A DNA stretch of 32,000 bases from an uncultured archaeon (GTDB lineage: Archaea; Asgardarchaeota; Jordiarchaeia; Jordiarchaeales; Jordiarchaeaceae), in NCBI GenBank assembly GCA_964510585.1, contig CAZECW010000020.1, forward strand, positions 70,669 to 102,668. The letters run 5' to 3'. Each line of letters begins with the position of its first letter. The stretch's first letter is position 1. Positions 21,314-29,847 of this stretch are shown one piece after another. Below the pieces are notes generated by a model that was given only the letters and a program-made list of their open reading frames with translations, was not told the origin of the DNA and ran no database searches. The position numbers were made by a program, and so were the translations under genes.

Positions 21314-22591
21314 TTAAAAGAGCTTTTCCACTTTTTTCCGGGCGGTTTCTCCTCTTCCTAGTGCTTCATGTGCACGTGCAAGGTGGCCGGCAGCGAGTGC
21401 GGCGATGAGGGATACTTCTCCAGCGAGTGCTGCTGAACAGGCGATTTCGGCAAATTTTTTGGCGAGGGTTCCTGGAGGTTTTCCTTTCATAAAGCCTCCG
21501 CCGCAGTCCATTATGGAGAGTGCTTCTTGCATCTGGCTTAGCCACATTCCTCCTCCTATAGTTCCACAGATCATTGAAGGGAGCGTTAGGGATATGTACA
21601 AGTCGCCATCATTGATTTCTTCGGCTGTGACTATTCCCATGCTTGATTCACCTATGTGGGCAGCGTCTTGCCCAGTGGCGATCCATATAGCGGCGATTAT
21701 GTTTGCTGCATGGGAATTAAACCCGTACGAGGCTGCTTGACCGCTGCCCACATATATTTTACGGTAAACTACTTCAACCATCTTTTGGGCGGTGGTTTTT
21801 AGGGTTTCCTTTATGTATTCCTTTTTTAGTATGGCTTCGGATTGGACTGTTTTTCCTCTTCCTAGGATGAAGTTTAGGGCTGTTGGCTTTTTGTCGACGC
21901 ACATGTTCCCGCTGAGCGCTATGGTTTCTGCCCAGGGAAGATTTTCTTGAATAAAATTACATACTGCTTCAGATGCGCTGGTTACCATATTCATTCCCAT
22001 AGCGTCGGCAGTGTCTGCCAGAAGTCTGAGGAAAACGTTTCTCCCAATTATCCAGGGCTGGAAATCTAGAAGTTTTAGAAAGGGATCTTGGCCTTTAAAA
22101 ACTTCGCGTATTTTTTCGAAGTTGTCTTTCACCCAGTTTACAAGTTTAACTGCGTGTTCGGTGTCTGGAACTAAAATGCATGGTGCCCTAGTGATGGCAC
22201 TTTTTAATACTCTTGCCTTGGCTCCGCCACTTGCCGTTATGATGCTGCATCCTCTATTAACGCTTGCTACAAGAGCTCCCTCGGTTGTGGCTAGTGGTAT
22301 TAGGTATTCGCCATCTGCTATTTCTCCTTTCACCTTTAGTGGGCCAGCGATTCCTAAGGGTATTTGTTGGACTCCTATGGGAGCCTCTATGTTTCTTGAT
22401 GCTGTCTGTTTCATATCTATGGAGTAAGATCCGATATGTTTGAGCTCTTTTCCGATTATTTTCTCTATAGCTTTTCTTCTAATGGTTGTTGCTGTTTCTA
22501 TATCGGTGTATTTCTCGACTTGGTAGAATTTGATTTCTCCCCTGACTACCTTTTCGATCAGTTCCTCATGGGTAATTTTTTCTTGAGCCAT
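21314..22591 (-). CDS. hmgA: Class I (NADPH) HMG-CoA reductase
   Basis: PLATTEGALVAS, DAMGMNM, GNMCVDKK, GTIGGG, catalytic His in LARAH. Start set to ATG 22591, 4 nt after the upstream stop. Confidence 0.96.
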   Translation of the reverse strand: MAQEKITHEELIEKVVRGEIKFYQVEKYTDIETATTIRRKAIEKIIGKELKHIGSYSIDMKQTASRNIEAPIGVQQIPLGIAGPLKVKGEIADGEYLIPLATTEGALVASVNRGCSIITASGGAKARVLKSAITRAPCILVPDTEHAVKLVNWVKDNFEKIREVFKGQDPFLKLLDFQPWIIGRNVFLRLLADTADAMGMNMVTSASEAVCNFIQENLPWAETIALSGNMCVDKKPTALNFILGRGKTVQSEAILKKEYIKETLKTTAQKMVEVVYRKIYVGSGQAASYGFNSHAANIIAAIWIATGQDAAHIGESSMGIVTAEEINDGDLYISLTLPSMICGTIGGGMWLSQMQEALSIMDCGGGFMKGKPPGTLAKKFAEIACSAALAGEVSLIAALAAGHLARAHEALGRGETARKKVEKLF

Positions 22592-22595
22592 TTTT

Positions 22596-23030
22596 CTACT
22601 CACTTCCTCCTTCTCTTTTTTCAATTTCTACTATTCCCTTTTCGCTATCGACGATTACCCTGTCACCATCTTCTATAACTGTGAGGGGATCCTTTTCTAG
22701 TCTGTGTACGAGGGGGATTTCTCCGATAACTGCTCCCACAAGTGTTACGGTGTCGGATGCCCTTTGAATAATCGCTTTGGGAGCTAAACCCCTATTTGCG
22801 AGGTTAATCAGCACATATGAGCCAACGGTTGACCCAATTCCGGTACTGAATACTAATATTTTTCCTTTGATGCTTTTTCCCTCCAATTCATGTCCTTTTT
22901 GGATAACCTTCCCCGTGTTGGGATCTATGAATCCTAGAAAGGATATGGGCATCTGGGTCACGAGTGCCTCTCCCTCCACTCTGGGATTTTTTAAACCTCT
23001 CAGCCCCTCTCCTCTTAGTACTATCTTCAT
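22596..23030 (-). CDS. Phosphomevalonate dehydratase small subunit (aconitase X swiveling domain, DUF126)
   Basis: VEGEALVT..PISFLGFIDP.TG...GHELEGKSIKGKILVF...GSTVGSY...GAVIGEIP; TAATG coupling with the large subunit. Confidence 0.92.
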   Translation of the reverse strand: MKIVLRGEGLRGLKNPRVEGEALVTQMPISFLGFIDPNTGKVIQKGHELEGKSIKGKILVFSTGIGSTVGSYVLINLANRGLAPKAIIQRASDTVTLVGAVIGEIPLVHRLEKDPLTVIEDGDRVIVDSEKGIVEIEKREGGSE

Positions 23031-28382: not shown

Positions 28383-28392
28383 TATTTAAATA
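28383..28392 (-). promoter_or_regulatory. Possible TATA box for the mevalonate operon
   Basis: Palindromic TATTTAAATA about 83 nt upstream of the HMG-CoA synthase ATG, preceded on the minus strand by purine-rich gaggatacacaa. Confidence 0.35.
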
Positions 28393-28782
28393 TTGTGTAT
28401 CCTCTCAATGTTGAATCGACAATTTTAGCATTTTTCCTCTAATAATTAGAATTTGTGATACGAAACCTGCGATGTGCAAATTTGACTAAAAAGTATATAA
28501 ATTACCCGATTTCAAAATCGTTATTTAACATAAAAATGTGGAAAAATTGGGCTTTTTTCTTGAAAACAGTTAAGCTTAAAATTCTAGCAGGTTTTAAAAA
28601 TAGGCTGACCCTAATCTTTCCCCCAATTCGGTTAAAGTACGGAATAATTAGAGGAAAGTGAGTATTCTTGTAATTTTGACGAACTACCCTTAAAGTCCAT
28701 AAGAAAGAATTAAATGTTTCAAATCTTAGAATCACGAGAAACTTGAAAACCGAATCTATAACTTGTTTAAGGAGAGATAAGC

Positions 28783-29847
28783 TTGCAATTCAGCCAAGTG
28801 GTAGAGGATCTATCAAAGAAAGTTAATCAGGTTCTAGTTTCCTTTTTGGACGGTAAAATTGCAATGGCGCCTTTCTCTTATCATCGAACATACTACTCAA
28901 ATATTAAAGAATTTATTATGAGGGGAGGAAAAAGACTCAGACCAATTTCCCTCATCCAAGCCTACAGGGGAGTAGCGGATTCCAGCGAGAAAATATTCCT
29001 CCCCTCCCTTTCCGTCGAACTCCTCCATAATGCGACACTAATCCACGATGACATCATAGACCACGACGAGCTTCGAAGAAGCGGCCCCACATTCCACGTA
29101 ACTTATAGGGAGTGGTACAAGAAGGAATTTATGTCAAGCACTAAAGCTGAAGACTTTGGAAACACCATGGCTATCTTGGGCGGGAATACCACCTATAATT
29201 TGGGCATCGAAACCCTCCTATCCTCCAAGTTTCCCCCTAACCTGATCTGTGAGGCTATCCGCCTCTACCAACAAGTTTTTCAAGAACTAATTGACGGAGT
29301 CATGTATGAGAGTGTGATTCAGAGAAAAGATGGTGTGACTCTCGACGAATACCTGCAAATGGTAAAAATGAAAACCTCCTCCCTACTGGAAAAATCTATA
29401 CAAATCGGAGCGGTGTTGGGGGGAGCGAAAACCAGCCAAATCAAAATGCTTAGAGAATACGCAGTGCTGGTGGGGCAATCATTCCAGATTCAGGATGACA
29501 TACTGGGAACATTCGGAGTAGAGTCAGACACGGGAAAACCAACCGATGGAGACATAAAAGAAGGTAAAAAAACTGTGTTAGTAGTTCAGGCACTAAACAA
29601 TGCTTCTACTAACGATCTAAACATCCTCAAGAAGGTGCTCGGCAATTCAAATGCCGACCCAAGTGATGTGGAAAGAGTTAGGAAAATATTTCAAGAAACT
29701 GGAGCTCTCGAAAAGGCAAAAAAACTAGCGTTAGAACTGAAGGAAGAAGCCAAAAAAAGATTACTTAAAACTAAACCCCCACTAAAGAAAGAATCGCAAG
29801 AATTTTTCCTAGACCTAGCAGACTTCGTTGCAAGCAGAATTTACTAG
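28783..29847 (+). CDS. idsA: trans-Isoprenyl diphosphate synthase (GGPP synthase/IdsA family)
   Basis: GGKRLRP, first Asp-rich motif LIHDDIID..ELRR, MKTS, second motif FQIQDDILG, GKPTDGDIKEGKKT; TTG start. Confidence 0.92.
   Translation: MQFSQVVEDLSKKVNQVLVSFLDGKIAMAPFSYHRTYYSNIKEFIMRGGKRLRPISLIQAYRGVADSSEKIFLPSLSVELLHNATLIHDDIIDHDELRRSGPTFHVTYREWYKKEFMSSTKAEDFGNTMAILGGNTTYNLGIETLLSSKFPPNLICEAIRLYQQVFQELIDGVMYESVIQRKDGVTLDEYLQMVKMKTSSLLEKSIQIGAVLGGAKTSQIKMLREYAVLVGQSFQIQDDILGTFGVESDTGKPTDGDIKEGKKTVLVVQALNNASTNDLNILKKVLGNSNADPSDVERVRKIFQETGALEKAKKLALELKEEAKKRLLKTKPPLKKESQEFFLDLADFVASRIY

Follow-up and report, generated by a model that had tools for sequence, protein, structure and literature searches.

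A conserved Jordarchaeia gene block that probably encodes the core of the archaeal mevalonate pathway, composed of two widespread gene trios and HMG-CoA reductase

The DNA stretch considered here (the window, 32,000 nucleotides (nt) long) corresponds to positions 70669 to 102668 of contig C20 (CAZECW010000020.1) of the genome of an uncultured Asgard archaeon of the class Jordarchaeia (assembly GCA_964510585.1, below G000; 3.78 Mb, 217 contigs, 96% complete). Gene calls were based on a list of open reading frames (ORFs) and on Pfam and NCBIfam profile scans of the window proteins. Seven co-oriented minus-strand genes were found at 21314-28318, coding for 3-hydroxy-3-methylglutaryl-CoA (HMG-CoA) synthase (HMGS), a thiolase, a DUF35 protein, a UbiD-family decarboxylase, an AcnX enzyme's large subunit and its small one, and class-I HMG-CoA reductase (HMGR), with an isoprenyl diphosphate synthase (IDS) gene divergent from them. 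As judged from gene content and context, this block very probably supplies the central biosynthetic steps of the archaeal mevalonate pathway, which runs through trans-anhydromevalonate phosphate. A sequence-only reading of the window had proposed a near-complete archaeal pathway here, and this is supported in that the cluster would encode the upper mevalonate pathway and both enzymes that are hallmarks of the archaeal route; all eight genes were present with the identities that it gave, and its junction lengths were reproduced, apart from a refined start for the UbiD gene.

The first three genes encode the enzymes leading to HMG-CoA. HMGS is of the archaeal type (27230..28300; 356 amino acids) and most likely starts at a conserved ATG at 28300, which is kept within the genus together with a Shine-Dalgarno-like site (AGGT); the longest ORF (27230-28318) begins at a TTG at 28318. 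Its matches to NF003274 (549 bits) and TIGR00748 (541.6 bits) both exceeded the cut-off, its best solved structure was chain 6esq_I (457.7 bits), the HMGS chain of the thiolase/HMGS/DUF35 complex of M. thermolithotrophicus, and the catalytic Glu, Cys and His motifs, FHQPNG among them, are retained. The SCP2-type archaeal acetoacetyl-CoA thiolase (26057..27208, minus strand; 383 amino acids; NF004720, 504 bits, above the cut-off) follows after a gap of 21 nt and has a ribosome-binding site GGAGGG. It matched 7yvy best among solved structures (393.9 bits) and the complex chain 6esq_A second (352.3 bits). After a further 14 nt comes the DUF35 scaffold protein (25626..26042, minus strand; 138 amino acids), consisting of a zinc ribbon and an OB fold (zf-ChsH2, PF12172, and OB_ChsH2_C, PF01796), with a CxxC...CxxC zinc ribbon and the DUF35 chain 6esq_E as its best solved structure (126.6 bits).

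The UbiD-family protein, a candidate trans-anhydromevalonate phosphate decarboxylase (AMPD), contains three UbiD domains (24204..25502, minus strand; TIGR00148, 373 bits). Its longest ORF (24204-25523) runs from a GTG at 25523 that is not kept in the genome G006 of the same genus. The most likely start is a conserved TTG at 25502 behind GGAG, giving 432 amino acids, the same length as its relatives. The spacer between the DUF35 and UbiD genes, 102 nt when counted to the GTG, therefore measures 123 nt (25503..25625). The UbiD gene overlaps by 14 nt (ATGTTTCTCAATAG) with that of the AcnX large subunit (23030..24217, minus strand; ATG at 24217; 395 amino acids; PF04412, 455 bits; longest ORF to 24226), which in turn shares a 1-nt TAATG overlap with the gene of the AcnX small, or swivel, subunit (22596..23030, minus strand; 144 amino acids; PF01989, 108.5 bits; NF003046, 144.4 bits, below the 163-bit cut-off). 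These two proteins are the candidate large and small subunits of phosphomevalonate dehydratase (PMDh). The last gene, after a 4-nt gap with a GGAGG site, encodes class-I HMGR of the NADPH type (21314..22591, minus strand; 425 amino acids from an ATG at 22591; longest ORF to 22624; PF00368, 416.7 bits), which scored 470.8 bits with TIGR00533 (cut-off 441.8 bits) and 52.7 bits with the degradative class-II model TIGR00532. The divergent gene (28783..29847, plus strand; 354 amino acids; PF00348, 189.3 bits) encodes a short-chain trans-isoprenyl diphosphate synthase resembling geranylgeranyl diphosphate (GGPP) synthase; it did not reach the cut-off of any NCBIfam model specific for chain length (GGPP_syn, 199.7 versus 500; IdsA, 192.4 versus 468; geranylfarnesyl, 131.9 versus 560 bits). 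No further lipid genes were found in the window.

The survey of cluster conservation that the sequence-only reading had proposed was carried out and revealed that the eight-gene block is kept across the class Jordarchaeia. Indeed, in all nine other Jordarchaeia genomes with enough contig the genes share the order and orientation of the window, with HMGS, thiolase, DUF35, UbiD, AcnX large, AcnX small and HMGR in succession behind a divergent IDS gene, and on contigs that end early the genes present keep this order. The block is common to both Jordarchaeia families at 55-77% amino-acid identity, and over all the genomes compared the identities run from 97% to 55%. The prenyl synthase keeps its divergent position wherever the contig is long enough to include it. 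Of the flanking genes, those for Roadblock and coiled-coil proteins recur within the genus but not beyond it, save in part at one sister-family locus. As the order of the block is kept while its flanks vary, its conservation exceeds the background synteny and the arrangement is not due to chance. For comparison outside the class, the best 80 UbiD loci of a species-level genome collection were inspected with 10-kb flanks; these came from Bathyarchaeia, Micrarchaeota, Thermoplasmata, Methanomethylicia, Altiarchaeales and bacteria of the Anaerolineae, and 73 of them were not from Jordarchaeia. The order UbiD, AcnX large, AcnX small occurred in about 60 of these 73 loci, several of the exceptions being contig ends, and HMGS, thiolase, DUF35 or HMGR genes lay within 10 kb of the UbiD gene in none of the 73. 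Similarly, when each of 20 other Asgard families was represented by one genome, the UbiD-AcnX trio was present in about 13 and joined to upper-pathway genes in none. Hence, among the loci sampled, the union of both trios with HMGR and a divergent prenyl synthase is specific to Jordarchaeia, and the cluster is a joining, in that class, of two old and widespread three-gene modules with HMGR. The statement that such genes are usually dispersed thus holds for this union only; the UbiD-AcnX trio is widely fixed, and HMGS-thiolase-DUF35 is the operon of a known complex.

The seven genes had further been taken for one operon. Five of the six junctions fit this, being 21 nt or shorter or overlapping, with Shine-Dalgarno-like sites, which is consistent with co-translation; the sixth is the 123-nt DUF35-UbiD spacer (25503..25625, minus strand), which carries a candidate internal promoter, the TATA-like element TCAAAAAGATTAAA (as read on the minus strand), placed about 45 nt upstream of the TTG at which UbiD starts. 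This element is invariant in five aligned spacers of the window's genus, g1 (G000, G006, G007, G008 and G009), amid spacer sequence that has diverged. Its core resembles the promoter element AAAGAATTAAAT of the IDS gene as well as 8-mers of the ATTAAATA type that are over-represented ahead of genes; in the upstream k-mer enrichment computed for genome G000, TATA-type words were 5-7-fold enriched. In addition, runs of five to six T precede the element in G006 and G007, and the spacer falls precisely where the two ancestral modules meet. All this speaks for two transcription units, namely HMGS-thiolase-DUF35 read from the divergent promoter and UbiD-AcnXL-AcnXS-HMGR read from a promoter in the spacer. 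The tightness of the other five junctions argues against such a division, as do the T runs in the window, which comprise four T at most and make read-through plausible, and the situation in the sister family, where the DUF35-UbiD junction is about 20-50 nt long without a TATA-like element and co-transcription is likely. For this genus, the chances of one unit and of two are about even. Two units would affect the operon claim and not the function of the genes; co-location would then reflect ancestry, perhaps with loose co-regulation.

The remaining steps of the pathway were sought by family-profile searches of the whole genome G000. Mevalonate kinase (MVK; C18:20723-21559, minus strand; TIGR00549, 285 bits, above the cut-off), isopentenyl phosphate kinase (IPK; C18:19715-20497, minus strand; NF040647, 254.6 bits, above the cut-off) and a type-1 isopentenyl diphosphate (IPP) isomerase (IDI1, a Nudix protein of 171 amino acids; C18:19035-19502, minus strand; 129.6 bits) are encoded in a second operon on one strand (C18:19035-21559; L134:7000-9560), flanked by the ribosomal protein genes S2 and L7Ae. 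The prenylated flavin mononucleotide (FMN) synthase UbiX (C20:43976-44518; TIGR00421, 237.6 bits, above the cut-off; PF02441, 157 bits) is encoded on the same contig as UbiD, about 51 kb away. That the genes mvk, ipk, idi and ubiX lie outside the window had been stated correctly, and all four are now placed elsewhere in the genome. In the mvk gene (L134:8622-9560), the TIGR00549 match begins about 54 nt upstream of the first ATG, GTG or TTG of the frame, the open frame amounting to 317 amino acids versus 294 for the listed ORF, which begins with GTG. Translation may begin here at a non-canonical codon; otherwise the N-terminus calls for a check.

No ATP-dependent decarboxylase of the GHMP type, be it of the diphosphomevalonate/phosphomevalonate decarboxylase (DMD/PMD) family or MBD, was found in this 96%-complete genome, the best TIGR01240 score being 20.7 bits versus a cut-off of 171 bits, and none of the ten other Jordarchaeia genomes matched that model. 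The UbiD of the cluster is the sole UbiD in the genome. All eight steps from acetyl-CoA to IPP and dimethylallyl diphosphate (DMAPP) by the archaeal route are represented: the cluster accounts for five of them, comprising all carbon-skeleton steps, and the second operon for the two kinases and the isomerase. The genome is thus predicted to encode a complete archaeal mevalonate route.

The isomerase sets the window's genus apart. IDI1 is the eukaryotic type of this enzyme and the type-2 isomerase (IDI2) is the usual archaeal one; unlike in the usual archaeal pathway, the isomerase is here of type 1. Each of the six genomes of the genus has IDI1, which was found in none of the 145 other Asgard genomes sampled. 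IDI2 was present in five out of five sister-family genomes and in none of the genus, the search of genome G000 included. In both Jordarchaeia groups, the isomerase gene lies directly downstream of ipk, and this shared position indicates that IDI2 has been replaced in situ by the non-orthologous IDI1 in this genus. Outside the family, this IDI1 is closest (64-69% identity) to proteins that carry the labels Methanomethylicia and Patescibacteria/Parcubacteria.

The divergent control region between HMGS and IDS (28319..28782, 464 nt) contains a TATTTAAATA box on the HMGS side and the AAAGAATTAAAT element on the IDS side. Two 12-mers, ATCGACAATTTT and AATTTTGACGAA, are invariant in the five genus genomes. 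They face in opposite directions, and the TATA element of either divergent promoter has one of them about 22 nt upstream; TTTAAATA ranks with the most strongly enriched upstream 8-mers of genome G000. The motif common to both oriented 12-mers, AAWWTTGWCGAW, was considered as the mark of a shared regulon and was rejected. It occurs 22 times genome-wide versus about 17 expected, with 16 of the 22 copies falling within long ORFs; the four other copies between genes neighbour unrelated ones (HpaB-family/acyl-CoA synthetase, HTH protein, isochorismatase, metallo-beta-lactamase and hydantoinase), and the genome-wide search found none near mvk-ipk-idi or ubiX. The two 12-mer footprints are real and the regulon idea is unsupported. 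The tight coupling of the genes (14-nt and 1-nt overlaps, 4-nt gap), together with these 12-mers upstream of the TATA elements, is the ground for a further proposal, that the union of the genes reflects an extended metabolon or a dedicated regulator of lipid-precursor flux; taken jointly with the isomerase exchange in one Asgard genus, this proposal seems doubtful. No dedicated regulator of mevalonate genes was found in the literature searched, and literature term searches returned no description of the IDI2-to-IDI1 exchange or of the conserved promoter-proximal elements.

The archaeal, or modified, mevalonate pathway was reportedly established in A. pernix and M. mazei by Hayakawa et al. in 2018 and Yoshida et al. 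in 2020. The identities, arrangement, conservation and completeness of the genes described above, as well as the catalytic motifs and ligand cysteines of HMGS, DUF35 and AcnX large, allow the activities, the complex and the transcripts to be projected onto it as follows. Thiolase and HMGS, held by the DUF35 scaffold in a channelling complex, would convert three acetyl-CoA into HMG-CoA, which class-I HMGR would reduce to mevalonate. After phosphorylation of mevalonate by the kinase of the second operon, the two-subunit [4Fe-4S] AcnX enzyme would act as PMDh and convert mevalonate 5-phosphate into trans-anhydromevalonate 5-phosphate. UbiD would act as AMPD, converting the latter into isopentenyl phosphate with prenylated FMN supplied by the separately encoded UbiX. 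IPK and the type-1 isomerase would finish IPP and DMAPP, to be elongated by the divergent prenyl synthase. In this genus, transcription of the cluster may start at the divergent promoter and also at an internal one that precedes UbiD.

For AcnX, the assignment can be traced to characterized relatives. AcnX large matched PMDh of T. kodakarensis (7cnr) with 304 bits and type-I hydroxyproline dehydratases with 123-130 bits. Its Cys119, Cys289 and Cys347 align with three [4Fe-4S] ligand cysteines, which in PMDh of A. pernix (ApPMDh) are Cys122, Cys297 and Cys356, as shown by mutagenesis (PMC10040528). Adjacent genes with PF04412 and PF01989 point to a two-subunit AcnX of type IIb. A second pair of AcnX large and small genes occurs at G000:C85:275-1929 (L136), followed by a gene of the HpaB/4-hydroxybutyryl-CoA dehydratase family. 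This pair is 33% identical to that of the cluster, scored 220 bits with 7cnr (304 bits for the cluster pair) and matches type-I AcnX more strongly, so that the cluster pair is the better PMDh candidate.

For UbiD, the assignment as AMPD rests on synteny, copy number and pathway logic, because its phylogenetic tree holds no biochemically characterized AMPD; the protein is therefore named a candidate here. It lies directly upstream of AcnX large and small and inside the AcnX-linked UbiD clade. A grouping with aromatic-acid decarboxylases, which the sequence-only reading had named as evidence to the contrary, was not seen, and neither was the other such case, a DMD/PMD route in its place. Indeed, UbiD remained far below the cut-off of every curated model for (hydroxy)aromatic-acid decarboxylases or carboxylases (VdcC, 209 versus 650; menaquinone decarboxylase, 161 versus 496; UbiD, 125 versus 788; BagN, 57 versus 1000; phenylphosphate carboxylase, 104 versus 469 and 64 versus 565 bits). 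No solved AMPD structure was found in the PDB search with UbiD. A specificity histidine of the furan-dicarboxylate decarboxylase HmfF, which uses H297 for substrate specificity (PMC7976604), was tried as a discriminator between AMPD and HmfF; this residue, His296 as counted on the alignment used here, aligns with the invariant H286 of the present clade, and hence does not separate the two.

Several points weigh against the pathway proposed for this block. The best solved relative of its UbiD is HmfF (270 bits), whose substrate-specificity histidine it conserves; none of the 59 proteins in the UbiD tree is a biochemically characterized AMPD; the negative result for the decarboxylase and the eukaryote-type route is limited in that no search with its own model was made for a GHMP-type phosphomevalonate kinase (PMK); the genome, 96% complete, is spread over 217 contigs; and a conserved promoter-like element may split the cluster in this genus. 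The likeness to HmfF, the label 2,5-furandicarboxylate decarboxylase that some databases give to homologues, the non-mevalonate enzymes within the AcnX family and the second AcnX pair of the genome could also be taken to mean that UbiD and AcnX serve another pathway, such as the decarboxylation of heteroaromatic or unsaturated acids or the dehydration of another hydroxy acid, and have mevalonate genes as neighbours by chance. This is very improbable, since without them no route would lead from mevalonate 5-phosphate to IPP, no DMD/PMD having been found while MVK and IPK are present. Moreover, UbiD is a single-copy protein that falls below the cut-off of every aromatic-acid decarboxylase model, AcnX large is far closer to PMDh than to hydroxyproline dehydratase, and across archaea the trio forms a fixed unit that agrees with the validated locus of M. 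mazei (PMC12547664). The assignment of UbiD and AcnX to isoprenoid synthesis from their context, as proposed at the outset, is thus supported by the sole UbiD, the conserved trio and the lack of a detected DMD/PMD gene.

UbiD enzymes can in principle work in both directions. PMDh does so in vitro (PMC10040528), but a catabolic direction, in which mevalonate or isoprenoid-derived acids would be turned into acetyl-CoA, is very improbable, given that HMGR is of the class-I NADPH biosynthetic type (470.8 bits versus 52.7 bits with the degradative model), that a prenyl diphosphate synthase gene accompanies the cluster, that the genome, which has to produce isoprenoid lipids, contains no other set of mevalonate genes, and that the cluster is kept class-wide, including in small genomes of 1.7-2.7 Mb.

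The archaeal mevalonate pathway proposed for this block agrees with that of A. pernix and M. mazei in its enzyme set (MVK, PMDh of AcnX type IIb, AMPD, for which UbiD is the candidate here, with UbiX, and IPK), without an ATP-dependent decarboxylase. The layout is also that of M. mazei, whose validated genes are AMPD (MM_1526), PMDh large (MM_1525), PMDh small (MM_1524), MVK/IPK (MM_1762/1763) and UbiX (MM_1871) (PMC12547664, Table 1): AMPD, PMDh large and PMDh small are consecutive, MVK and IPK are adjacent, and UbiX is apart. The N-termini fit as well, with MTYRDFI and MYLTKEEE in the M. mazei primers (PMC12547664) versus MRDFLE and MFLNREEE here. Unlike in M. mazei, the Jordarchaeia trio is joined to HMGS-thiolase-DUF35 upstream and to HMGR downstream, with the prenyl synthase divergent. 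With respect to the M. thermolithotrophicus complex (PDB 6esq and 6et9), three adjacent genes each match one chain; their order is HMGS-thiolase-DUF35, and four more pathway genes follow directly. As in PMDh of T. kodakarensis (TkPMDh; 7cnr and 7cns) and ApPMDh, the AcnX enzyme is a two-subunit type IIb with the three ligand cysteines kept. Unlike in those systems, the AcnX pair is translationally coupled to UbiD by the 14-nt overlap and to HMGR across the 4-nt gap, and there is a further, divergent AcnX pair elsewhere in the genome.

A UbiD tree of 59 proteins (IQ-TREE) placed the Jordarchaeia sequences in one clade (SH-aLRT 99), within a well-supported group (99) that contains AcnX-linked UbiD from seven other Asgard families and from Bathyarchaeia, Micrarchaeota, Thermoplasmata and Chloroflexota; UbiD of the Asgard families outside this group lies on long branches. 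Jordarchaeia UbiD is closer to Bathyarchaeia and Micrarchaeota (52-57% identity) than to other Asgard archaea (50% at most). A recent horizontal origin of the cluster was considered and not supported by the tree, as the Jordarchaeia clade branches beside, not within, the Bathyarchaeia and Micrarchaeota groups, and it differs from the clade of the sampled Micrarchaeota UbiD. UbiD homologues with 50-57% identity also occurred in Chloroflexota, in metagenome-assembled genomes of Anaerolineae (L039, L046, L048, L059, L064, L075, L081, L092 and L102). The full UbiD-AcnXL-AcnXS trio was found in L039, L046 and L092, and UbiD with AcnX large in L081; the six Chloroflexota UbiD sequences in the tree form one clade within the archaeal AcnX-linked group. 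An archaeal mevalonate pathway is said to have been reported by Kanno in 2024 in Ca. Promineifilum breve, and the Chloroflexota trio fits this.

Among 151 sampled Asgard genomes, 138 contained a UbiD homologue and DMD-family genes were confined to five families. The pattern is partly complementary, families f23 and f27 having DMD-family genes without UbiD. In family f17, with genomes 75-83% complete, neither was seen. In several genomes of family f9, UbiD and a DMD-family gene share a contig and are no more than about 3 kb apart (for example G149:C223:2542-6351, G054:C10:11792-15583 and G017:C87:8444-12269). The same was reported for Hodarchaeales by Zhu et al. 2024, whose main text describes the archaea-type route (AcnX1, AcnX2 and AMPD) as dominant in Asgard, Jordarchaeia included, and DMD/PMK as limited to Heimdallarchaeia and some Lokiarchaeia (PMC11052028). 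The 151-genome sample agrees with this published survey. The same source states in general terms that mevalonate genes usually cluster, and a term search of its main text gave neither the seven-gene arrangement of Jordarchaeia nor the term IDI1 (PMC11052028). A bearing of the locus on the origin of eukaryotes, which the sequence-only reading had suggested, was not supported: Jordarchaeia branch deeply within Asgard, and how the mevalonate routes are distributed over Asgard archaea, this class among them, was already published in 2024 (PMC11052028).

The cluster is thus real and was read correctly in its essentials, and it is a known kind of system, so that its interest is modest. As the pathway and its Asgard distribution are already in the literature, no new question is opened; what is particular to the lineage is the joining of the two trios with HMGR. 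For an Asgard class without a cultured member, the analysis annotates the lipid-precursor pathway from gene context. It indicates that Jordarchaeia would use the ATP-saving archaeal route, the eukaryote-type decarboxylase not having been found among their genomes searched, in agreement with the published view, in which other Asgard lineages evolved or acquired the eukaryote-type route. The host is a hot-spring archaeon. The compact block and the three-gene second operon also represent a thermophile-derived gene set for pathway reconstitution.

The host affiliation, which the sequence-only reading had left conditional, is Asgard, class Jordarchaeia. The closest named UbiD relatives agree with this (80-93% identity), namely Candidatus Jordarchaeia archaeon RPF2, Ca. 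Jordarchaeum madagascariense and Ca. Freyarchaeota SRVP19, the latter with a closed chromosome (CP147778). In the public records, what seems to be G004, a genome of the sister family, is labelled 'Nitrososphaerota archaeon' by NCBI, and L037 (G005) is labelled 'Thermoproteota archaeon'; both are apparent taxonomic mislabels of Jordarchaeales genomes.

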